From: Leptospirales bacterium
GTDB taxonomy: Bacteria > Spirochaetota > Leptospiria > Turneriellales > JAOUFE01
DNA length: 22,612 nt
Reading direction: 5' to 3'
Assembly: GCA_040326155.1 (NCBI GenBank)
Contig: JBEQLE010000072.1
Location: forward strand, 1 to 22,612
The stretch's first letter is position 1. Each line of letters starts with the position of its first letter. This document shows positions 1,033 through 12,301 of this stretch, one piece after another. The notes under the pieces were generated by a model. It made no database searches. It was not told the origin of the DNA and saw nothing but the letters and a program-made list of their open reading frames with translations. The translations under genes were made by a program, and so were the position numbers.

Positions 1033-3645
1033 ATGAAAAACAAATCCACCACATCACCACCCAACGCCTTCACAACCGACGGCCTGCTCTTCCCCGCAGA
1101 AGATCTGATCAGTATTCCTGATCTCATCTCGGGCAGCATCGACGCAAACGGTAAGATACGTCTAAGCGCAGAGGACATTACCCTCAACGCAGGCGGTCTT
1201 TCGTTGACCGGGGCGTCGGCTCTTTTGACCAACGACAAAATCGAAATGATCGGCCAGTGGCTTGGCTTGTCGCTGGCGCTCAGGGCGCAGATCGAAGAGA
1301 ACTCCTTCTCGCTTGTGGGTGATACGAGCTTTGAAACCGGCATCAATACCATTCAAAAAATGGCGCTACCGGCCACCCCTGTAACCTCCGAAATCGACTT
1401 GGGCGAGATTCACATTGAAAGCGCTATCGGCGTCGATGTTCAAATCGGGATGTCCCTCGATACCCTTTCGGTCAAACTCAACGTGGCTTTTAGTTGTTTG
1501 GGCGATCACTCCATCAGCTTTGAGGTCGATAAGTTGCCCGATACCATCGAGGGTTTTGCCAACCTCATCAGAGAGCAGGTCACCGACTGGGTGAGCGACA
1601 ACGTCTTGCCCGACACTTTTATTCCCAAGGATGGCGAGTTGCTGCCAGCCAACGACTTTGTGAGCGTCACCGGAAAACTCGCGGGCAACCTCACCCCGGA
1701 GGGCAAAATCTACCTCAGTGCAAGCAATGTCTCTCTGTCGGCTTTAAGGGGGACCTTCACCGTCGGTGAGGCCGATGCTCTTTTGACCAACGACACCATC
1801 GATGTCTCGGGAAAATGGCTGAACACCTTAGATATTGCCCTGGCCATAGAGGTTACTCAAGGCCACATCACCTTAATTGGAGATACCCAGATCGAGATCA
1901 GCACCTTCGACATTGACCTGACCTTTAGTAAACTGCCTGACCCCCTCGCAAAAATGATGGCGAATTTAACTAGAGAAATCACATGCTCAGGTTCGGGCGA
2001 TATACATGTCGAAATTGATAACGCCGATCTCAGCATTGGCATTGATCTCAAAATCATTTGCATGGGAAATCACTCCTTGCCCACATTTTCGATATCAGCT
2101 TCGCCGAGCAGTCTTACCGATCTTATCACCACAATCAAAAACGAGATCAACAATTGGGTTCTCGACAAGCTCTCGCCCGATACTTTTCTTCTTCTGGGGG
2201 CGTTTAAATTTCCATCGAGCCTGCCGGTGAAACTCACAGGAACGCTCGCCGGCTATTTTGACAAGTCAGGCGATTTTTCCATTGGAATCATGGATGCAGG
2301 GTTTACCATCGGGAGTTTTAATTTTGGAACTGTTACCCTGACGTTTGAAAACAGAAAGGTCGAATTTATCGGAAGCTTTCTTGCCGTCAAACTGACCGTA
2401 AATTTATTGCAGGAGGACAACCAACTTATACTCAAAGGGGATTGCGCCACCAAGACAATCAATTTTGGCGTCAACCTGGGAGCCCTCAGCTTTCCCATTC
2501 CCGTCATCAATTACAACTTAAACATCGGACCGCTCAGCATCAATATTGGCTCGCTGGATGTCGCTCTCGGTTTCGTTTTGCGTTTAACGTCATTTTCGTT
2601 TACGATAGCCTGCACCATTGTATTTTTTGGACTTACGAAAAGCATCTCCTTCACCTTATCGGTCGCTCCGTTAAACCTCGCGGCGCTCGTAACTGCCATT
2701 GGAACTGAGATTGCCAAACATGCCTGGAACTGGATTAAAGAGGTGATGGGAACGAACCCGTTTACCGTGGTCATCGCCATTGTGAATAAGGTGAACAATC
2801 CCTTGATCAGTATACAACTAAAGGGGTCTAAAATAGACAACCTCAACTTAAACAACGCTTTTGAAAGTATGATGACCATGGACCTCAACATCAAAATTGC
2901 AGGCGTTCAATTTCTTTCCGGTTCTCTAAAGAAAGAAGGTAGCGGGTATCGACTTAACGGTACAATTGGGTTTTCGACCAACCTGATCGGGCTCACCGGA
3001 ACCGTCTCGGGATATGTCGATTCCAGCGGAAATATTGAACTGACGGGTACGAACAACCTGACATTCAACGGCACTACCCTGCTGAGCGTCTCGACTACCC
3101 TGACAAATACCTCCCTTACATTTTCAGCAAGCTTTATGGGAGAAAACCGCACCTTGCGATTCGACGCAAATGCCAAAACAATCAGCATGGATGATTTTGA
3201 CCTGTCGACAAGTATCAGTAATATCCCCATTCCAACTGTCAAAAAAGGCGGCGCCCCCGGTGGATTCGGGCCTATTTTTACTACCTTAAACGACGGTGTC
3301 ACCCTGCCCAGCGCCCGTGTCTCTTTTACAATAGGAGGCACATTTTATCTTAAAATCTCTTCCAGTTTTACAGTGCCTAATTTTAACTTAAGCGCCTCTG
3401 TCACCCTTATCATTGCCAGCCCGGGTTCTATTCAAGATATCTTTACACAGATGCCAACATTGCTGGCCAACAAAGTAGCTGAAAACATCCAAGGTCTTTG
3501 TAGTTTTCCCCGAATCAATTTTGACTACTCCTGGAACAGTCCCCATGCAGATCGCTACATCGACACCCGCTGGTACGGGGATCACAGTTTGAACGTAGCC
3601 TCATACCATGTCGATGCGCCCCATGTGGATGGGAATCTTTTCTGA
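1033..3645 (+). CDS. Large beta-strand-rich repeat protein (4 x ~186 aa) with a C-terminal aromatic-x-Asp motif tail; candidate radical SAM substrate
   Basis: 870-aa ORF. Repeats share G-x-(I/L/F/V)-x-x-x-G early and end in a P..(I/L)..(F/L/I) amphipathic helix. Identical 19-mer gctcttttgaccaacgaca at 1219 and 1777 (558 nt apart). Tail is WNSPHADRYIDTRWYGDHSLNVASYHVDAPHVDGNLF. No signal peptide evident. Confidence 0.85.
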   Translation: MKNKSTTSPPNAFTTDGLLFPAEDLISIPDLISGSIDANGKIRLSAEDITLNAGGLSLTGASALLTNDKIEMIGQWLGLSLALRAQIEENSFSLVGDTSFETGINTIQKMALPATPVTSEIDLGEIHIESAIGVDVQIGMSLDTLSVKLNVAFSCLGDHSISFEVDKLPDTIEGFANLIREQVTDWVSDNVLPDTFIPKDGELLPANDFVSVTGKLAGNLTPEGKIYLSASNVSLSALRGTFTVGEADALLTNDTIDVSGKWLNTLDIALAIEVTQGHITLIGDTQIEISTFDIDLTFSKLPDPLAKMMANLTREITCSGSGDIHVEIDNADLSIGIDLKIICMGNHSLPTFSISASPSSLTDLITTIKNEINNWVLDKLSPDTFLLLGAFKFPSSLPVKLTGTLAGYFDKSGDFSIGIMDAGFTIGSFNFGTVTLTFENRKVEFIGSFLAVKLTVNLLQEDNQLILKGDCATKTINFGVNLGALSFPIPVINYNLNIGPLSINIGSLDVALGFVLRLTSFSFTIACTIVFFGLTKSISFTLSVAPLNLAALVTAIGTEIAKHAWNWIKEVMGTNPFTVVIAIVNKVNNPLISIQLKGSKIDNLNLNNAFESMMTMDLNIKIAGVQFLSGSLKKEGSGYRLNGTIGFSTNLIGLTGTVSGYVDSSGNIELTGTNNLTFNGTTLLSVSTTLTNTSLTFSASFMGENRTLRFDANAKTISMDDFDLSTSISNIPIPTVKKGGAPGGFGPIFTTLNDGVTLPSARVSFTIGGTFYLKISSSFTVPNFNLSASVTLIIASPGSIQDIFTQMPTLLANKVAENIQGLCSFPRINFDYSWNSPHADRYIDTRWYGDHSLNVASYHVDAPHVDGNLF

Positions 3646-3657
3646 GGAAATATCAAG

Positions 3658-5661
3658 ATGAGCGCAGAGATACGACCACTCGGAACAAAATGCAACCTGC
3701 AATGTAGCTATTGCTACCAGGACCACCAAAGAGAAGCAGAGCGTTCTTTCGCTACAAAACCAGAGTCATATAATTTCGAAAATATAAAACCGACCCTCGA
3801 AAAGATGGGAAGAGAGTTTACTCTTTTTGGCGGCGAACCTTTGCTCTTGCCGCTTAGAGAACTCGAAAAGATATTTCACTGGGGGTTTGAGAAATTTGGC
3901 AAAAATGCAATACAGACAAACGGCACCTTGATCACCGATGAACACATCGAGCTTTTCAAAAAGTATAAAGTCGGCGTCGGAATATCGATCGACGGTCCGG
4001 GAGAACTCAACGACTTGCGATGGGCGGGTACACAAGAGAAGACTCGCAGCTTGACTCGGCGTACTATTCAATCTATAGAACGCCTTTGCAAAGAGGACCA
4101 GCGCCCATGTCTGATCATCACCTTGCACAAAAACAACGCCTCCGCCGAAAAACTACCGCTATTAATAGATTGGTTGAAGAGTTTAGACAAAATGGGATTA
4201 CCCGCAGCGAGACTCCATATTCTGGAAAACAACAACGACACCATTCGAGAAAAACATGCGTTATCGAATCGGGAAAACATTCATACGTTTTCTGAATTAT
4301 ATAAATTACAAGAAAAGTGTAGCAACCTGCGCTTTGATGTTTTCGATGATATTAATTCTTTACTCAAAGGCGACGACACAAAAACCACCTGCGTTTGGGG
4401 CGGCTGCGACCCCTACACCACACGGGCGTTAACCGCAGTCGAAGCAAACGGCGAGATCACCCATTGTGGGAAATTAACGAAAGAAGGAATCAGCTTTACG
4501 AAAGCCAATCAAGAGGGGTTCGAACGCTATATCTCTTTATACTTTACGCCCCAAGAAAACGGAGGCTGTAACGGTTGCCGCTTCTTTTTGATGTGCAAAG
4601 GGCAGTGCCCCGGAACGTCCATCGACAGCGACTGGCGAAACAAAACCGAATACTGCGAAGTCTGGAAAGCTCTATTGGAAAGGGCAGAAAAACGGATGGT
4701 TGAAAATGGCGAGACTCCGCTATCACTTTTACCCGAAAGAGAAGAACTCGAAAATCGAATGCTCTTTGCCTGGACTTTCGGAAGCAACCCTCCGATCCAT
4801 TATCAATTCGAAAAACTCAAAAAAGAACAATACGGACAACATGACAAAGAAGAAAGTGGAAATTTTACGATGACACTTGATCACGGCGTTACGAAATTGA
4901 ACGGTAAAAACAACGATCAAATTACAGGTCCCGGTTTTACGTTGCACAATTTTATGCGTATCCAATGGGTAGGCGAAAAAGCCCGTGAAACCTGGGGGGA
5001 ACGTTTTGAAAAAATACAAGCGTGGTTGGCCCAAAACAAGGAGCGCTTCAATGTGCCGGAGTGTTGCCGGGAGTTCCAGAAAAGTCTAGAGCAAAACAAG
5101 CTTGATCCGTTATGGTATATCATAAACAACACAGATAACGAAGCGCCCGGAAAAAACAAAAATCAAAACGAATATACCATGGACCAACATGGCGGTTTGA
5201 ATATTCTTGTATGGACGCTTGGGTTAGACCTTCTCGGATATTGGCCCTGTAGCTGCGAGTGCGAAGAGTCACAAGAAAAAGTACGAACACTTTTGTCGCT
5301 AACTGGCGCTAACGAAGAGGAAGATTCAGATTCCCAAATTTTGCACTGGCTAAAAGAGATACTCACTTGGCCGATGGAGTGGTCATCCTTGCATGGCATT
5401 ACCGAGATCAAAACACCGGTGATGAAGGTCATCACCAACACCGTCGCGACTCTGGAAAAACTAACCGTGATTTTTCAAGGCAATCACTACCCGCAAGAGG
5501 GGGCAACCGGTCTTTCGTTCCCGTATAACGCCAGGCGGGATGCTCCAGAAGATTACCCGGTGAACGGCAAACGACTCCGAGACACTCAAAAGGGTCATTT
5601 GCAGAAGAACGAATATGACAATACGGTAAAACATTTTGAAAAAGCGACTCAAACCGTATGA
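3658..5661 (+). CDS. Radical SAM/SPASM-domain maturase-like enzyme with a fused C-terminal Cys/Trp-rich domain
   Basis: CNLQCSYC (CxxxCxxC, aa 12-19), FGGEPLL, IQTNGTL, GISIDGP. SPASM-type cysteines CVWGGC...HC...CNGCRFFLMCKGQCPG...YC. Extra domain at aa ~427-623. Starts 12 nt after the upstream gene, with gagga SD. Confidence 0.92.
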   Translation: MSAEIRPLGTKCNLQCSYCYQDHQREAERSFATKPESYNFENIKPTLEKMGREFTLFGGEPLLLPLRELEKIFHWGFEKFGKNAIQTNGTLITDEHIELFKKYKVGVGISIDGPGELNDLRWAGTQEKTRSLTRRTIQSIERLCKEDQRPCLIITLHKNNASAEKLPLLIDWLKSLDKMGLPAARLHILENNNDTIREKHALSNRENIHTFSELYKLQEKCSNLRFDVFDDINSLLKGDDTKTTCVWGGCDPYTTRALTAVEANGEITHCGKLTKEGISFTKANQEGFERYISLYFTPQENGGCNGCRFFLMCKGQCPGTSIDSDWRNKTEYCEVWKALLERAEKRMVENGETPLSLLPEREELENRMLFAWTFGSNPPIHYQFEKLKKEQYGQHDKEESGNFTMTLDHGVTKLNGKNNDQITGPGFTLHNFMRIQWVGEKARETWGERFEKIQAWLAQNKERFNVPECCREFQKSLEQNKLDPLWYIINNTDNEAPGKNKNQNEYTMDQHGGLNILVWTLGLDLLGYWPCSCECEESQEKVRTLLSLTGANEEEDSDSQILHWLKEILTWPMEWSSLHGITEIKTPVMKVITNTVATLEKLTVIFQGNHYPQEGATGLSFPYNARRDAPEDYPVNGKRLRDTQKGHLQKNEYDNTVKHFEKATQTV

Positions 5662-5718: not shown

Positions 5719-8280
5719 ATGCAACTAAAAGATTCTGAACTAATCGTAAACGATGAGGACGGTAAAACGGAACCATCCCTGAAAAAAACTGTCCGAAAAA
5801 ACGAAAAGGGCGAGGTGGTTGAAGATGGGCTAGAGATCATTACCCCGTTTATCGCCATCGGGAAAAACGTCAAGGCGACCGGGCAAAACGCCATGGCCAT
5901 CGGAAACAACAACGATGCTACAGGGAATTCCTCTTTCGCCCTGGGCAGCAACACGCAAGCCGGCGGACAATCTGCGCTCTCAATGGGTTTCGATACAAAA
6001 GCCACAGGAGATTTCTCGACGGCCATCGGCCACACCACCGAAGCCGCAGGCGATACCTCTACGGCGATGGGTGTAGCTACAAAAGCTCTTGCAAAATTCT
6101 CAACAGCCATGGGCGGCAATACTCAAGCCGAAGGCACCTATTCAACGGCAATGGGAATGGCAAGCAAGGCAACCGGTACAGGCTCCACCTCACTGGGCAA
6201 TATAACCATAGCCGAAGGTGAGGCGTCCGTATCTATGGGAAGCAATACAAAGGCCACCGGCGAGAATTCGGCCTCCATGGGAAAGGAAAGCATAGCTTCC
6301 GGTGCGCAATCGCTGGCCGCCGGAGAGGCGAGCGCCGCGACGGGCATGGATGGCGTTGCGCTTGGCAAAGCAACTGCGGCTAACGGGAGTTATTCAACCT
6401 CCATAGGAAATGCTACCATTGCCGATGGTGATTCTTCTTTGGCTGCGGGCCGGGGAACAAAAGCTGAAGGGCAAATCTCGATGGCAATGGGTAACGCAAC
6501 CGAAGCCAAGGGTTATGCCTCGACGGCGCTCGGAAAAAACACCGTGGCCGAAGGGCAGGCGTCGACAGCCATGGGTGTTTCCACATCGGCTTCCGGGGAT
6601 GGCGCGACGTCAATGGGCTATATGACAAAAGCGACCGGAAACAACTCGCTGGCATCGGGCCTTTTAACCGAAGCTGGTGGAAGTTCTGCCACTGCCATGG
6701 GAAAAGAGTCAAAAGCTACCGGCAACGGCGCAACATCGATGGGGGCATTTACCGAAGCCGCCGGAGACTCTTCGTTGGCGACCGGAAAAGAAACCAAAGC
6801 CACGGGCAACGGCGCAACCTCAATGGGTATAACCACCAAAGCCGAAGGGCTTGCGTCGTTATCGACGGGAACCGAAACCAAAGCCTCGGGCGAAGCCAGC
6901 GTAGCTATGGGGGACGAAACACAAGCAACCGGGGTAAACTCCGTAGCGATGGGCAAAGCCACACAGGCTACCGGCATATCATCCCTCTCGACCGGAGACG
7001 AAACAATCGCCGCAGGCGATCACGCGATATCGGCCGGCGCACAGACCAACGCGCAAGCTTATGGCTCCGTGGCTCTGGGGCAGTACAACAAGAGAGAAGG
7101 CAACCCGACCCAATGGGATTTAAACGATCCACTGATAAGCGTCGGAAACGGAAATAACGGATATCAAGAACCTCCCCCTGAGCCGGGAGATGATTATCAG
7201 CCGCCGCCTGTCAATGTCGATCGAAACAACGCCATGACTCTCTCTAAAAACGGAGATCTATCGATTGCGGGAAAATTTACCCCTGACGGAAATTGTTATG
7301 CGGAGTATTTTGAGGCTGGCAATGATATGCCAACCCAATTCACGAACGTCGAATTTGATGGAATCATCGCAGGGTTAACACCCGCAACAGATGCGCAACC
7401 GGAAGCGGTAGCCGAGGCGGAAGCAAATCAAGAGGTCATGCGGACCAATTACTCAGCCGACACGGATAACACACTGTACGTACTTGCCGATCCAATTACA
7501 GTCGAAGAAAAAATAAAAATATTTCATATTTTAGAGGCGACCGGTAATGATCAGATCGATACGAAATTAGAAACCGGAAAGTCTGTTGTCTTATTGGAAA
7601 ACGGAAAGATCAGACCGGCGCAAGATGGGGAAATTCCCTTTGGCATTATTTCAGCCAACGCGGGTACGGTCGGGGGCGATTACACAGAGTGGCCCAAAAA
7701 ATATGCACGAGATGACTTTGGGAGTATCATTACAGAAACGTATCAAACACCCGTTATGAAACCTAGCACGATATTTCAACAAGTAATGAAACCGCAAATG
7801 CAAGATCCCGATCCAGACAACCCCAAAACAAAAAAAGTCACCACCTACGAATATGAACCCTTCTTTTTCGATAATAATGAAGTGAAACATTATCGAAGAA
7901 TACCAATCACCACGGATGTACCCGACACCGCGCCAAGACCGGTTTTCAACACCTTCGTTTTGTATGATGAGTTAAAAACCAAAGAGATCGGACAGCATAT
8001 TATTCCGGCACTTGTTGAGGGAACGGTGAGCGTCCCGGTGGTTGATGACAACGGAGACCCTGTCATGGTCAAATCCACAGAAGTTATCACCGCAGAGCGC
8101 AAAAAGATCAGCGGCGATTATAACCCGGAACAAGAGTACAGCCCGCGAAGCGCACGCCCGGAATGGAACGCTGTAGGATTGGTCGGTAAAATTCCACTTA
8201 TCAAGGGACAACCCGTTGCGCCAACATGGATCAAAATCAGAGACATCTCAAATGAAGTGGAACTCTGGTTGGTCAAGTAG
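5719..8280 (+). CDS. Tailspike/adhesin-like protein: YadA-head (Hep_Hag-like) 14-aa repeats plus C-terminal Peptidase_G2-like intramolecular chaperone/autocleavage domain
   Basis: 29 consecutive 14-aa repeats A-x-G-x-x-S-x-A-(M/L)-G-x-x-T-x. C-terminal motifs YAEYFE, GKSVVLLENGKIRPA, PFGIIS, WPKKYARDDFG, YNPEQEYSPRSARPEWNAVGLVGK, WIKIRDISNEVELWLVK match the phi29 gp12-type Peptidase_G2 domain. aggag SD upstream. Confidence 0.88.
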   Translation: MQLKDSELIVNDEDGKTEPSLKKTVRKNEKGEVVEDGLEIITPFIAIGKNVKATGQNAMAIGNNNDATGNSSFALGSNTQAGGQSALSMGFDTKATGDFSTAIGHTTEAAGDTSTAMGVATKALAKFSTAMGGNTQAEGTYSTAMGMASKATGTGSTSLGNITIAEGEASVSMGSNTKATGENSASMGKESIASGAQSLAAGEASAATGMDGVALGKATAANGSYSTSIGNATIADGDSSLAAGRGTKAEGQISMAMGNATEAKGYASTALGKNTVAEGQASTAMGVSTSASGDGATSMGYMTKATGNNSLASGLLTEAGGSSATAMGKESKATGNGATSMGAFTEAAGDSSLATGKETKATGNGATSMGITTKAEGLASLSTGTETKASGEASVAMGDETQATGVNSVAMGKATQATGISSLSTGDETIAAGDHAISAGAQTNAQAYGSVALGQYNKREGNPTQWDLNDPLISVGNGNNGYQEPPPEPGDDYQPPPVNVDRNNAMTLSKNGDLSIAGKFTPDGNCYAEYFEAGNDMPTQFTNVEFDGIIAGLTPATDAQPEAVAEAEANQEVMRTNYSADTDNTLYVLADPITVEEKIKIFHILEATGNDQIDTKLETGKSVVLLENGKIRPAQDGEIPFGIISANAGTVGGDYTEWPKKYARDDFGSIITETYQTPVMKPSTIFQQVMKPQMQDPDPDNPKTKKVTTYEYEPFFFDNNEVKHYRRIPITTDVPDTAPRPVFNTFVLYDELKTKEIGQHIIPALVEGTVSVPVVDDNGDPVMVKSTEVITAERKKISGDYNPEQEYSPRSARPEWNAVGLVGKIPLIKGQPVAPTWIKIRDISNEVELWLVK
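5875..7092 (+). repeat. Coding tandem array of 29 x 42-nt (14-aa) beta-roll repeats
   Basis: Runs from ATGQNAMAIGNNND to AQAYGSVALGQYNK with no indels. Confidence 0.9.
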
Positions 8281-8372
8281 AAGAAGTTCAAGAATAAAGA
8301 AAATATGGCCGACGAAGACTGCGGTAATCTCGATGGGGAAATCCACAAGCGGCGGCGGGTAGACAGACCGCG

Positions 8373-8391
8373 TTGGGGAATTCCCCGGCAT
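8373..8391. repeat. 19-bp palindrome-containing repeat, copy 1
   Basis: ttggggaattccccggcat; 18/19 identical to 10193-10211. A degenerate copy tggggaaatccac lies at 8334-8346. Confidence 0.75.
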
Positions 8392-8507
8392 AGGGGGGAC
8401 ATATATTATTTTAAAGACCTTTTTTACTTGAAAGTCCAAGCCCCGCCCCTGAAATGAGACATCGCCGCACCAACCGACGCCAACGACAATGATTACAAGA
8501 GAAAAAT

Positions 8508-10172
8508 ATGAACCTGAAAAAAATCGTACCACTACCTATTTTGTTTGGCCTTTTCACTTTGCTCTCCTTCAGCTCCACCTTCGCAGAGCCCTCCTCCAAC
8601 TCAGTTCTGGAAGAACGAATTGAGGGGGTGAAGGAACTAAACAAGGACCAAATAGAACGCCTGGAAGAAAAAATTGATTTATACGGAAAGTTTGGCGCCA
8701 CTATTCTGGCTTTATTAGGGGTTATCGGTTTTGCCACGATTGCTACGATCATACGACTGGATATTAATAACAGAATAGACAAAAGATTGAAACAGATTTT
8801 CAAACAAGAAAAAGTCGAAAAGAAAATTAAAGAGAGAATCGCAGCAGCCGAAGACGAAGCCCTGAATAACTTTGGGGATGATTTGGATGAAAGAGCCAAT
8901 GAAAAGCTTACATTGCTCGATCAAAAAATAGCAGAGCTGGACGACCTGAAAAGCAAAGCCAATGAGAAATTGAATTTACTGGATAAAAAAATTGAAGAAC
9001 TCGATTTAAAAGCTAAAGAGAATTTAAATTCTCTGCGTACAAAGTATATCACTTATAACGATGAACTCGTAAAGAAGATGGAAAAAACATATGTAACAGA
9101 ACTAAATATATTGAAAGAAAAAACAAAAGACCTGAATATCAACGAACCCATCCCGGAAGAGACAAGAAAAGAGCTGGAAGAGTTTTCTGACACTCTCGAA
9201 AAAGCAAAAGAGAAAAAAGAGTATTCTGCATGGGACTGGCACTTCAAAGGTATCTCTTATTATAAAAAAGAGCAATACCAAAAAGCAGTCGATGCATTTT
9301 CAGAGGCGATTAGATTAGACCCTGATGATGAAGATAATTATCTAAACCGGGGAGCATCGTATTATAATTTAGATAAACATAATAAAGCGATCAAAGATTA
9401 TAACAAAGCTATTGAACTGAAACCTGATTATGCAGAGGCATACAACAACCGAGGAGCTGTATATGACGATCTTAAAAAATATGATAAAGCGGTCAAAGAT
9501 TATAACAAAGCAATTGAACTTAAACCTGATTATGCAAATGCATACAACAACAGAGGAATAGCATACAATAACCTGGAAGAATACGATAAAGCGGTCAAAG
9601 ATTATGACAAAGCGATTGAGTTGAAGCCTGATTATGCAGATGCATACAACAACCGAGGAAATACCTACAAAAACCTGAAAAAATACGATGAAGCGATCAA
9701 AGATTATGACAAAGCAATTAAACTTAAACCTGATTATGAAAACGCGTATTTCAACCGGGCATATAGCTACAGCCAACTCAAGCAACATGACATGGCCATT
9801 GAAGATTACAAAAAGGCTCTTGAACTCGATTCAAAGGATACAACCTCTTCCCAGAATCTCGCTGAGGCCTACTTTGTCACCGGGCAACCTGAACAAGCTC
9901 TGGACACTGTTCAACAAGGCTGGCGTGATGAGCTCTCTGACGACGAACGGGCTACGTTTCTATTATTGCGTCTGATGGCCCAACAAGTTCTGGGGCAAGG
10001 CAGAACCGAAACCGAAAAGCAGTTCAGCGAAATTCTCCAAAACGAATTTACCATCACCTGGAGTTTTGATATAATCGATAACTGGCTCGATACATCTGAC
10101 ATCGACGAGGCGGGTAAAACGGCCATCCGGGGCTGGGCGGAGCAATTCAAGGAACGACGGGATCCGAACTAA
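8508..10172 (+). CDS. Membrane-anchored tetratricopeptide repeat protein
   Basis: Signal-peptide-like N-terminus (..SSTFA/EP), TM segment FGATILALLGVIGFATIATII, long coiled coil, and about 7 TPRs (AYNNRG...A.KDY.KAI.LKPDY). Confidence 0.92.
   Translation: MNLKKIVPLPILFGLFTLLSFSSTFAEPSSNSVLEERIEGVKELNKDQIERLEEKIDLYGKFGATILALLGVIGFATIATIIRLDINNRIDKRLKQIFKQEKVEKKIKERIAAAEDEALNNFGDDLDERANEKLTLLDQKIAELDDLKSKANEKLNLLDKKIEELDLKAKENLNSLRTKYITYNDELVKKMEKTYVTELNILKEKTKDLNINEPIPEETRKELEEFSDTLEKAKEKKEYSAWDWHFKGISYYKKEQYQKAVDAFSEAIRLDPDDEDNYLNRGASYYNLDKHNKAIKDYNKAIELKPDYAEAYNNRGAVYDDLKKYDKAVKDYNKAIELKPDYANAYNNRGIAYNNLEEYDKAVKDYDKAIELKPDYADAYNNRGNTYKNLKKYDEAIKDYDKAIKLKPDYENAYFNRAYSYSQLKQHDMAIEDYKKALELDSKDTTSSQNLAEAYFVTGQPEQALDTVQQGWRDELSDDERATFLLLRLMAQQVLGQGRTETEKQFSEILQNEFTITWSFDIIDNWLDTSDIDEAGKTAIRGWAEQFKERRDPN
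9370..9770 (+). repeat. Near-identical 102-nt TPR-coding tandem repeats
   Basis: Recurrent aaagcgatcaaagattat...aaacctgattatgca...gcatacaacaac units with a 34-aa period. Boundaries approximate. Confidence 0.85.
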
Positions 10173-10192
10173 ACATGGCAGGCACTCCTGCA

Positions 10193-10211
10193 TTGGGGAA
10201 ATCCCCGGCAT
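10193..10211. repeat. 19-bp palindrome-containing repeat, copy 2
   Basis: ttggggaaatccccggcat, 20 nt after the TPR gene stop. Confidence 0.75.
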
Positions 10212-10323
10212 GGTGGGGAAAAAACCACCCTGGACCGGGGACCTGACTTTAACCGGCAAATCCCCTCCCCCCGAAGATATCGTGGGGTTAAGCGCAGGAT
10301 CGCCCGCAGGGCAGCCGTAGCGG

Positions 10324-10552: not shown

Positions 10553-10846
10553 ATGAAAAAAAATAGTTCAAACAAGTCCAGCGCGCCCGAACAATGCGAC
10601 CCCTCTTCGGGGTGTTGCAAAGTGGAGTCGATGGTGACCGTTGATGAGCGGGGCCAGATGGTTCTGCCCAAAGAGATACGAGACAAGGCTAAAATTGCGC
10701 CGGGCGACAAGCTCGTTCTGGTCACCTGGGAAGACGAAAACGAGGTGTGTTGCATTTCGCTCGTAAAAAGCGAGCAGATTATGGGGATGGTCAAACGCAG
10801 CCTCGCCCCAATGGCCAAAGAGATGCTAAATGTTTCAACCGATTAA
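10553..10846 (+). CDS. AbrB/MazE/SpoVT-family DNA-binding protein, HgcAB-associated type
   Basis: CCKVESMVTVDERGQMVLPKEIRDKAKIAPGDKL is the swapped-hairpin AbrB signature. Two CC pairs. Overlaps the hgcA start. Confidence 0.85.
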   Translation: MKKNSSNKSSAPEQCDPSSGCCKVESMVTVDERGQMVLPKEIRDKAKIAPGDKLVLVTWEDENEVCCISLVKSEQIMGMVKRSLAPMAKEMLNVSTD

Positions 10847-12002
10847 GAGTCAAACTTTGCCCGATTTTTCCGGGTTGGGTTCTACGGTGGGTGCTACGGC
10901 GAATTCCGGTCCCGGTCAAAATTACGTTTTGAACCCACCCAAAAAAATTACCCAAAACTCGCCAAAACCGTTGCCAAGGGTCGACCACAAATGGAACGTT
11001 CGCGATTATCTCGGTGCATTTTTGGCCAGAACAACTTCGAGACGAAACGACTATACAGTGTTTCCGGGGCTTTACCGGTTTGGCGAGGCCGATAAAGATT
11101 CCGAGGTTCTGGTCAGCGCCAATTATAAACTGACTTTCGATAAACTTCGTCAAAAACTCGAAGGGCGTAATGTATGGATTTTGGTTTTAGACACAAAAGG
11201 GATAAACGTCTGGTGCGCAGCGGGTAAGGGAACTTTCGGAACCACAGAACTCATCAAAAAAATTCAAGCTGTGAACCTTGGCGAGGTGGTAAAACACCGT
11301 CGAGTCATTGTGCCTCAACTGGGGGCGGTTGGTATGGCAGCTCATGAAATAAAACTGCGAACGGGTTTTCGAGTTTCGTATGGACCCGTCGACGCCAGGG
11401 ACCTGCCCGAATATCTCGACAATGCTCGGCGCACAACCCCACAAATGAGACGAGTGAGGTTCAACTGGCGAGACCGTCTGGTGTTAACTCCCATGGAAAT
11501 TATTCCTTCTTTTAAACACTTCTGGAAATACACCGCCATAATCGCCATTTTGTTCGGGGTGCAACGTGAAGGGATTTTATTTCAAAACATAATACAAGAC
11601 GGCGGCGCCTACATTTTCGCAGGAGTTTCAGCCCTTTTCGCCGGTGCCTTAATGACACCGTTACTCTTACCCCTGATGCCCTTTCGATCTTTTGCGCTCA
11701 AAGGGTTTATAGCCGGTGTCGCAGTTTGCGCCGCTTTGTTTGGAATTTCTCAGTATCAGGAATCGTCTTTTTTCTGGAGTAACAACCCCTGGTTTCTTGC
11801 ATTTGCTTTCATATTTATTCCCTCTGCAAGTTCTTTCCTTGCTCTGCAATTTACCGGCTCTAGCACCTTTACAAATATGACAGGTGTATACAAAGAGCAT
11901 AAATATGCACTTCCACTTTATATAGTCGCTGTGGTCCTATCGGTTATATTGGCGCTGGCTCATAAAGTTACACTTTGGATGAACGCTGGAGGGTCCCTGT
12001 GA
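10830..12002 (+). CDS. hgcA: Mercury methylation corrinoid protein HgcA
   Basis: Diagnostic cap-helix motif GINVWCAAGKGTFGT, plus VSANYKLTFD and PQLGA. C-terminal multi-TM domain with FLALQFTGSSTFT. Adjacent to hgcB. Confidence 0.97.
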   Translation: MFQPIKSQTLPDFSGLGSTVGATANSGPGQNYVLNPPKKITQNSPKPLPRVDHKWNVRDYLGAFLARTTSRRNDYTVFPGLYRFGEADKDSEVLVSANYKLTFDKLRQKLEGRNVWILVLDTKGINVWCAAGKGTFGTTELIKKIQAVNLGEVVKHRRVIVPQLGAVGMAAHEIKLRTGFRVSYGPVDARDLPEYLDNARRTTPQMRRVRFNWRDRLVLTPMEIIPSFKHFWKYTAIIAILFGVQREGILFQNIIQDGGAYIFAGVSALFAGALMTPLLLPLMPFRSFALKGFIAGVAVCAALFGISQYQESSFFWSNNPWFLAFAFIFIPSASSFLALQFTGSSTFTNMTGVYKEHKYALPLYIVAVVLSVILALAHKVTLWMNAGGSL

Positions 12003-12301
12003 AATACCTTTTAAACGTAGCAAAATTAGAATACAACGAAACACTCTGCACGGGATGTCGGCGTTGCACCGAAGTCTGCCCCCACGGCGTCTTCGACCTC
12101 AAAAACAAAAAAGCCTTTATTACCGACAAAGACCGTTGCATCGAATGCGGAGCCTGCCAGAAAAACTGCGAATCAAACGCCATCAAAGTGCAAACCGGCG
12201 TCGGATGCTCCTCGGCCATTCTCTACAGTATTTTCACCGGCAACGAAGCCACCTGCGGCTGCGACGACGAAACCGGTTCCTCGGCTGCTTCGTGCTGCTG
12301 A
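11999..12301 (+). CDS. hgcB: Mercury methylation 2[4Fe-4S] ferredoxin HgcB
   Basis: Likely GTG start at 11999 overlapping the hgcA TGA (GTGA), with ggagg SD. CTGCRRCTEVCPHGVF, CIECGACQKNC, GVGC and terminal CC. Confidence 0.96.
   Translation: MKYLLNVAKLEYNETLCTGCRRCTEVCPHGVFDLKNKKAFITDKDRCIECGACQKNCESNAIKVQTGVGCSSAILYSIFTGNEATCGCDDETGSSAASCC

Follow-up and report, generated by a model that had tools for sequence, protein, structure and literature searches.

A radical SAM/SPASM enzyme family associated with His/Tyr-x-Asp triad tails on large bacterial and phage proteins

Stapling of amino acid side chains by radical S-adenosylmethionine (SAM) enzymes is known from short antibiotic-like peptides. 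The window analysed here is a 22,612-nucleotide stretch from a Leptospirales bacterium, which makes up an entire contig of a 4.26-Mb genome and contains a cassette of two genes. The first encodes P0001, an 870-residue protein that ends in five closely spaced triads of the form aromatic residue, any residue, Asp; the second encodes P0002, a radical SAM/SPASM enzyme fused to a partner domain. Comparative evidence from more than 100 bacterial and phage loci strongly supports a link between this enzyme family and triad tails, and makes some chemical modification of the P0001 tail by P0002 very probable. We lean, with some reserve, towards a reading in which P0002 modifies the tail triads of P0001 by triceptide-like stapling of the aromatic residue to a C-beta, the tail being retained on the protein. 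This interpretation, put forward in an earlier sequence-only reading of the window, is supported overall by the present analysis.

On a wider scale, these loci may form an undescribed and widespread system in which a radical SAM/SPASM enzyme and its partner put arrays of His/Tyr-to-Asp (or Lys/Arg) rings on the C-terminal tails of giant bacterial proteins and on phage fibre-module proteins, a proposal that we see as evenly balanced. The triad grammar is carried here by entire proteins, from 136 to more than 1600 residues long, and these come from many bacterial phyla, one archaeon and hundreds of phage contigs. If the proposal is true, the chemistry of RiPPs (peptides made by the ribosome and modified after translation) would serve in large proteins to make a structural or binding element. 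Should the chemistry hold, it would represent a new post-translational crosslink in protein biology, give a function to a large unannotated family of giant proteins and to phage fibre-module genes, and provide a natural enzyme set (Asp-type, Lys-type, fused and split) for engineering site-specific rings. A literature search, with subscription-only papers outside its scope, found no description of HxD tails paired with a radical SAM enzyme.

Results and discussion

The triad tail of P0001

The C-terminus of P0001 reads ...SFPRINFDYSWNSPHADRYIDTRWYGDHSLNVASYHVDAPHVDGNLF, and its translation places the five [H/Y]-x-D triads where they had been read before: HAD at residue 838, YID at 842, YGD at 848, HVD at 859 and HVD at 864. 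They are confined to the last 33 residues, the remaining 837 holding no HxD and two YxD (YFD at 408 and YVD at 661). This cluster is not due to chance. At least five triads in the last 35 residues were obtained in none of 20000 shuffles of the whole protein. Shuffling only the tail, which gave 0.97 triads on average, produced five in 4 of 100000 trials. Among the genome's 6041 open frames of at least 100 residues, four or more [HY]xD within the final 40 residues are found in P0001 alone. The genome's only other notable His-x-Asp repeat lies on the minus strand of contig C95, in a 131-residue frame with four AHKDG/AHKDD repeats.

The P0001 stop codon (3643-3645) and the enzyme's ATG at 3658 leave a 12-nucleotide gap, which confirms the spacing read earlier; co-transcription and tight coupling of the two genes are probable. 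The absence of a short precursor gene was likewise borne out: when all six frames of the window were scanned, TPR consensus repeats were the only other stretches dense in [HY]x[DN]. The features concerned are as follows.

1033..3645, plus strand: P0001, 870-residue predicted substrate protein (from translation)
3544..3642, plus strand: C-terminal tail, P0001 residues 838-870, predicted modification site with the five [H/Y]-x-D triads
3544-3552, 3556-3564, 3574-3582, 3607-3615 and 3622-3630, plus strand: tail triads HAD, YID, YGD, HVD and HVD, respectively
3644..3657, plus strand: GAGGA ribosome-binding site and 12-nucleotide spacer (from the sequence); GAGGA at 3644-3648 overlaps the P0001 stop
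3658..5661, plus strand: P0002, 667-residue protein in which a radical SAM/SPASM enzyme and a partner domain are fused
3682..4125, plus strand: radical SAM core, P0002 residues 9-156, with CX3CX2C at C12/C16/C19 (Pfam PF04055)
4390..4656, plus strand: SPASM region, P0002 residues 245-333, with eight invariant Cys (alignment columns)
4471-4479, plus strand: K272/T274 in the CG(R/K)xxK motif of P0002, the position that differs between Asp-type and Lys-type enzymes
4843..5658, plus strand: partner domain, P0002 residues 396-667, rich in Cys and Trp
5719..8280, plus strand: P0003, neighbouring fibre-like protein that has YadA-head repeats and a Peptidase_G2 intramolecular-chaperone (IMC) domain (Pfam)

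The body of P0001 has no match in Pfam, NCBIfam, PHROG or PADLOC, nor, by tblastn, in 50,697 phage records. Its AlphaFold model is poor (predicted local distance difference test, pLDDT, 47.5) and, read for secondary-structure pattern only, points to a disordered tail after four beta-meander modules that each finish in a long helix. The ESM Atlas offers weak leads: P0001 and the giant protein of locus L036 both match one unnamed 1234-residue cluster (0.86 and 0.90). Models of the AsmA/TamB/YhdP-like and DUF6603 kinds appear at template modelling scores of 0.15-0.40, too weak to name a family.

Few homologues of P0001 were found. Those that keep the C-terminus also keep the tail, as expected if the tail is a conserved feature, with Hx[DN] motifs and an ending in PH(V/Y)(D/N)G: P0125 (52% identical), P0127 (45%), P0129, where the similarity covers the last 386 of 5343 residues, and P0134 (291 residues). 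The C-terminus of P0126 is different, and P0128 is truncated.

P0002 and its relatives

The radical SAM core of P0002 is recognised by Pfam PF04055 with an E-value of 6.5e-16. Downstream of it, C245, C250, C270, C304, C307, C313, C317 and C333 are invariant in 29 relatives and form a SPASM pattern, with the spacing C304-x2-C307-x5-C313-x3-C317; NCBIfam models of SPASM enzymes align over residues 5-349. No curated NCBIfam model reached its cut-off. The top match is the anaerobic sulfatase maturase model TIGR03942, at 98.2 bits against a cut-off of 349.45, and identification of P0002 as such a maturase was rejected on this score. Other matches include DynA (85 bits, cut-off 450), AmcB (78.9, cut-off 425) and HxsB (38.7, cut-off 370). 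Among solved structures, the best match is an anaerobic sulfatase-maturating enzyme (anSME, 4k36, E 1.6e-12), followed by the cyclophane synthase ChlB (9gm3, E 1.7e-9). A defence-system assignment was also dropped, PADLOC giving only weak matches to viperin-type radical SAM enzymes.

P0002 is the sole member of its enzyme family in the genome. Elsewhere the family is large: among 8000 candidates scored, at least 2556 relatives were retained at E <=0.001, typically 660-720 residues long and 40-50% identical, from sources that include Bacillus, Paenibacillus, Cohnella, Ktedonobacteraceae, Pirellulales and Acidimicrobiia. Some relatives carry methyltransferase or 2-oxoglutarate-dependent oxygenase domains. 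One of them, P0061 (1158 residues), combines the radical SAM enzyme, the partner domain, a P-loop region and an alpha-ketoglutarate (aKG)-HExxH peptide beta-hydroxylase domain (TIGR04267, 72.7 bits, cut-off 40). P0061 and the P0001 homologue P0127 are each assigned to a contig of 22492 nucleotides, a hint only that they may be neighbours. Such fusions to tailoring domains point to side-chain chemistry on a polypeptide. A complex prediction of P0002 with P0001 residues 806-870 scored 0.00, without controls, and weighs neither for nor against binding.

Triad proteins recur beside the enzyme family

We examined the neighbourhood of the enzyme in 80 genome loci from many phyla and one archaeon, fetched with an alignment of the enzyme as query; a single P0002 query retrieved none. 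The upstream open reading frame (ORF) was defined as the longest same-strand ORF ending just before the radical SAM gene. At least three HxD triads are present in the last 60 residues of this ORF in 22 of the 80 loci, as in ...PHGDTKVVPHVDKKPHGDIPVHLDA and ...TPHGDTQSHVDHVTPPHSDSDIHVDTGNH, in agreement with the earlier prediction that neighbours of P0002 homologues carry aromatic-x-Asp tails. In five others of the 80 loci, the upstream ORF ends in [H/Y/F]-[V/I/L]-[K/R] repeats, e.g. ...PHIKIPYIKAPHVKAPHVKGW. Such tails are seen in 19 of 937 other ORFs of at least 130 residues from the same loci. Most of these 19 come from the cassettes themselves, being additional HxD proteins or the radical SAM enzyme with a tail of its own.

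A looser rule, which asks for at least four Hx[DN] within 60 residues in any plus-strand ORF of the locus, detects triad proteins in 53 of the 80 loci, three of which were discounted as out-of-frame artefacts. The association is also visible in viruses: in IMG/VR, 54 of the 58 loci that have a strong relative contain an ORF dense in Hx[DN], usually one that ends where the radical SAM gene starts; the corresponding count is 3 of 18 for control loci whose only radical SAM enzymes are distant and of other families. Two metagenome scans, with queries A2 and P0127, returned no match. In the motif regions of 151 ORFs, the 4330 His residues are followed at position +2 by Asp in 79% and by Asn in 9% of cases, and at +1 by Asp in 4%; these figures are partly circular because the regions were picked by motif density, and describe a grammar rather than an independent test.

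Sixteen bacterial cassettes inspected more closely are compact inserts of 2-4 genes among varied, often housekeeping genes. A fourth conserved gene of about 480 residues, with no Pfam match, follows the partner gene in L013, L026, L036, L037 and L050. At a single locus, L007 (12044-13333, Cohnella faecalis), a delta-endotoxin N-terminal pore-forming domain (E 2e-10) is encoded by the gene that follows the fused radical SAM enzyme.

One subfamily is arranged in another way, with a second radical SAM enzyme. It comprises L061, L064-L067, L069, L071, L075 and L079, from Bradyrhizobium, Paraburkholderia and Xanthomonadales-type genomes. The second enzyme measures 640-780 residues and ends in a conserved ADFP(L/W)G(F/Y/H), and the L061 copy has a B12-binding domain. 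This subfamily probably follows a different substrate logic.

Enzyme residues that vary with the third triad position

The third residue of the triad, X3, is Asp or Asn in most tails and Lys or Arg in a minority, and we compared the corresponding enzymes. At SPASM Cys270, Asp-type enzymes have the motif C-G-R-T-N-K. Of the 52 Asp-type enzymes, 50 have Arg at position 272 and 48 have Asn at position 274; the five Lys/Arg-type enzymes all have L, N or A at 272 and Asp at 274. His157 and Thr155 likewise change in the Lys/Arg-type enzymes. In P0002, the motif reads C-G-K-L-T-K and the positive charge is retained as Lys272. The direction of the charge change at 272 and 274 is the one that a direct contact with X3 would predict.

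Exchanges of this kind have a precedent among triceptide synthases, where Asp214 of HtkB lies near the substrate Lys, HaaB has His204 at the matching position, and swapping the two shifts X3 specificity (PMC11499958). The 272/274 swap parallels this D214/H204 switch, by analogy. In the sampled tree, P0002 is the sister of the Lys-type clade, and the P0001 tail mixes Tyr with His, as Lys-type tails do. P0002 would thus be a natural starting point for reading a putative X3 code at positions 272 and 274.

Related modules in phages

The only printed mention of the enzyme family that we found concerns an 'rSAM module' in the Thermus phages Cumys and phiMa, composed of a radical SAM enzyme, a DUF483 protein and a third protein, with similar loci noted in prophages (bioRxiv 10.1101/2024.08.14.607894, PMC11437467). 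By tblastn, P0002 is 44.6% identical to the Cumys radical SAM and DUF483 genes (Cumys_12 and Cumys_11) over 86% of its length. The Cumys module has the same order as the window: HxD protein (Cumys_13), radical SAM enzyme, then partner. It differs in that the enzyme and its partner are split in Cumys and fused into one 667-residue protein in the window. Furthermore, the Cumys HxD protein is repetitive over most of its length, whereas P0001 is a large protein with a short and sparse tail of five triads. The context is a phage in one case and a bacterial chromosome in the other.

The same report proposes DNA modification as the role of the module, and places relatives near cyanobacterial deazapurine DNA-modification genes (bioRxiv 10.1101/2024.08.14.607894). 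Under such a scheme, the radical SAM enzyme and its DUF483-like module would modify DNA or another non-protein target, and the HxD proteins would be unrelated neighbours, for example metal-binding fibre tips. HxD repeats go unmentioned in that report, with no occurrence of the term, although the third gene of the module, Cumys_13, encodes a 343-residue HxD-repeat protein. The HxD association spans bacteria, an archaeon and phages, all the profile matches of P0002 are SPASM enzymes that modify peptides or proteins, and residues in the region of the active site shift with the charge of the tail. We therefore hold a non-protein target to be very improbable.

Proposed chemistry

The triads, the gene coupling, the family-wide co-occurrence and the charge-tracking swap were observed directly; what we infer is the role of the tail as substrate, the reaction itself and what becomes of its product. 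P0002 would act as a protein maturase on the disordered C-terminal tail of P0001, recognising units of three residues in which His or Tyr, as the aromatic residue, stands two positions before Asp. A 5'-deoxyadenosyl radical would take a hydrogen from the third residue at C-beta, leaving there a carbon radical that would attack the aromatic ring (C2 of His), closing a small ring with a loss of 2 Da per triad. Up to five rings could be formed on P0001, and the modified tail would stay on the large protein, neither cut off nor exported. As to what a stapled tail might do, rigidity, protease resistance and metal binding are guesses.

Several rSAM/SPASM enzymes, among them YxdB, XyeB and GrrM, form three-residue cyclophanes. 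YxdB and HaaB were reportedly the subject of work by Sugiyama et al. in 2022, and ChlB of work by Morishita et al. in 2024. In triceptides, the HTK motif is crosslinked by HtkB between His-C2 and Lys-C-beta, and the motifs of HaaB, YhhB and ChlB are HAA, HNR and YDR, respectively (PMC11499958). Triceptide synthases share with P0002 the association of a radical SAM and a SPASM domain, an adjacent substrate gene, and repeated aromatic-x-X3 triads that include His. In both groups, X3 can be Asp, Asn, Lys or Arg, and an acidic enzyme residue is present when X3 is basic. Fusions to an aKG-HExxH beta-hydroxylase occur both in relatives of P0002 and in the ChlB/FxsB type. The differences are equally clear. 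Triceptide precursors are short and have leaders, whereas substrates in the P0002 family range from 136 to more than 1600 residues, P0001 itself having 870 and its distant homologue 5343. Unlike triceptide systems, the P0002 family has an obligate partner domain of about 270 residues and no associated protease or exporter, and many of its members are phage-encoded. Finally, P0002 scores 51-82 bits against triceptide synthase models with cut-offs of 310-450.

A number of observations weigh against the proposal. P0002 falls below the cut-off of every named cyclophane synthase model (YhhB 81.6 bits against 445, XyeB 53 against 450, GrrM/OscB 57.3 against 310, FxsB 51.4 against 370), and would thus act like such an enzyme without being a member; by sequence, cyclophane synthases are no closer to it than other SPASM enzymes are. 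The P0001 tail is atypical, with three HxD and two YxD, and lies below the rule of at least four Hx[DN] per 60 residues. About 25 of the 80 genome loci contain neither an HxD nor an HxK ORF, and about nine of the HxD-less loci are paired with a second radical SAM enzyme upstream. The five Lys/Arg-type enzymes form one clade (support 0.994), so that the swap at 272/274 counts as one evolutionary event and not as a statistical correlation. Lastly, His/Asp repeats could simply bind metal.

The triads could also be the target of another radical SAM chemistry: a C-O or C-N crosslink, oxidation or hydroxylation of the Asp C-beta, epimerisation, a gain of carbon with loss of four hydrogens as for HxsA, or a step preceding methylation. 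The best profile match of P0002 is indeed anSME, which oxidises and does not crosslink, and partner proteins are often fused to methyltransferases, with one relative fused to a beta-hydroxylase. The HxS motif of the HXS system gains 8 Da instead of losing 2 Da (PMC13128918). The strict i/i+2 pairing of an aromatic residue with a residue bearing a C-beta hydrogen is nevertheless the exact grammar of three-residue cyclophanes. Moreover, X3 changes from Asp to Lys/Arg while His/Tyr is kept, as if X3 provided a carbon and a recognition charge and not carboxylate chemistry. On balance, we regard these other chemistries as rather unlikely, and cyclophane formation as the best-fitting chemistry for P0002.

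Action of radical SAM enzymes on whole proteins has precedents in HXS, CrpC/CrpA and anSME. HXS is an antiphage system in which the protein HxsA has HxS repeats and is modified at a His triad by +8 Da (PMC13128918). It resembles the scheme proposed for P0002 in that a protein with repeated triads of His, any residue and a small residue is matured by radical SAM enzymes. HXS uses two such enzymes (HxsB and HxsC) together with HxsD, whereas the genome studied here has one of the P0002 family, and HxsA is cleaved and exported; no defence role is implied for the system in the window. Its repeats end in Ser and the P0001 triads in Asp, P0002 remaining far from the HxsB cut-off. In Methanococcus voltae, the SPASM enzyme CrpC introduces RiPP-like crosslinks on a protein substrate of the same cluster, CrpA; these are thioether (ranthionine) links on Cys-rich proteins, and CrpC has a RiPP recognition element (RRE) (PMC13692751). 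In contrast, P0002 starts directly with CX3CX2C and the P0001 tail has no Cys. Like P0002, anSME (4k36) is a radical SAM/SPASM enzyme that lacks an N-terminal RRE, and it acts on whole proteins, as predicted for P0002. It differs by its targets, the window having no sulfatase neighbour and the tail no Cys/Ser target motif, and P0002 has the extra partner domain.

Fate of the modified tail

Of two possible outcomes, a structurally modified protein agrees better with the data than does a RiPP whose leader is of giant size. In the latter case, the tail would be stapled, cleaved and released as a bioactive peptide, with the body of about 830 residues as leader or scaffold. Substrates as short as 136-231 residues, at L001, L023, L038 and L051, are compatible with such a peptide, and one relative has an HExxH domain, though NCBIfam names it a beta-hydroxylase and not a protease. 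The machinery of release is what fails to appear. As the sequence-only reading had remarked for the cluster, no separate gene for it was found: among the window genes scanned with Pfam and NCBIfam, no leader peptidase or exporter family matched, and the sole peptidase match is the autoproteolytic Peptidase_G2/IMC domain of P0003. None was found either among 55 neighbouring genes scanned in the 16 bacterial cassettes, ABC exporters included, the sole transporter-like match being an FtsX permease on the opposite strand at L013.

The bodies of the substrate proteins are also informative. The earlier reading had expected bodies to vary between loci, and this holds for N-terminal additions, which include tectonin, crystallin and PKD domains, but many bacterial substrates are homologous to one another. 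Twenty-seven giant substrates, of both Asp and Lys type, share a body of about 750 residues that belongs to no known family; its conservation indicates that the body is under selection of its own. The giant upstream ORFs with this common body span L004-L070 (e.g. L036 7289-9982, L005 206-2803) and many phyla. In Cumys, the HxD protein sits after the baseplate and tail collar fibre genes. With no peptidase or exporter, conserved giant bodies and the fibre context of Cumys, a modified protein is favoured over a released peptide, and we consider the giant-leader scheme improbable.

P0001 itself shows no relation to the 27-member giant family by BLAST, and a hidden Markov model of the P0001 family found none among the ORFs of the fetched loci. 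Profile-profile comparison with the giant family produced one local match over 117 columns (88% probability, E 3e-6), a lead only that P0001 may be a remote relative built from repeats of the giant-family module.

The partner domain

A partner domain of about 270 residues is fused to the radical SAM enzyme or encoded by the next gene in 74 of the 80 genome loci, and is a separate gene in most relatives of P0002. It is sometimes extended by a methyltransferase or DUF364 domain. Phage annotators label it 'DUF483'. The P0002 partner domain does not belong to that family by Pfam, having no Pfam match at E up to 1, and DUF483 appears in two relatives only, at E 0.004-0.011 and 16-18 bits against a cut-off of 25. 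Its model has a pLDDT of 72.6, rising above 90 across most of region 81-270. Foldseek retrieved no PDB structure at E <=0.001 (best 0.067), and VIA-align gave no clear match in 48161 chains (best Z 2.7); the absence of a recognised fold in these comparisons of a model does not prove a new fold.

Many radical SAM enzymes of the split form carry a short C-terminal HGDxPHGD tail of their own, which resembles the substrate. These include the ORFs of about 410 residues at L011, L017, L019, L023 and L025 and those of many viral loci, e.g. L098 8001-9260. The fused enzyme P0002 has no linker of the HGDxPHGD type.

Genomic context of the cassette

No relative of P0002 at E <=1e-30 was found in 40 related genomes searched, which suggests that the cassette was acquired horizontally. 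Upstream, positions 1-939 of the window hold an AT-rich gene of no known family, with 31% GC against 45-57% in the cassette. This gene is cut by the start of the contig, so that the upstream limit of the cassette or island is not visible.

Immediately downstream, P0003 matches its two Pfam families with E-values of 2.9e-46 and 4.7e-20. It also has a PHROG match to a pre-neck appendage protein and weak matches to phage tail spike and fibre genes. A fibre-like gene after the cassette recalls the phage arrangement; whether P0003 is part of the system is uncertain.

Further along, the window contains a complete mercury-methylation cluster, hgcC-hgcA-hgcB, at 10553-12301. HgcC, HgcA and HgcB score 113.7, 391.6 and 111 bits, each above the NCBIfam cut-off, HgcB being a TTG-start ORF (11975-12301) with a C-terminal Cys-Cys. 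Between P0003 and this cluster, a 30-nucleotide direct repeat (8370-8399 and 10190-10219, 87% identical) flanks a TPR gene at 8508-10172. The repeat is GC-rich and partly palindromic (GGGGAAxTCCCC), and could be an element of the repetitive extragenic palindromic (REP) type or an insertion scar.

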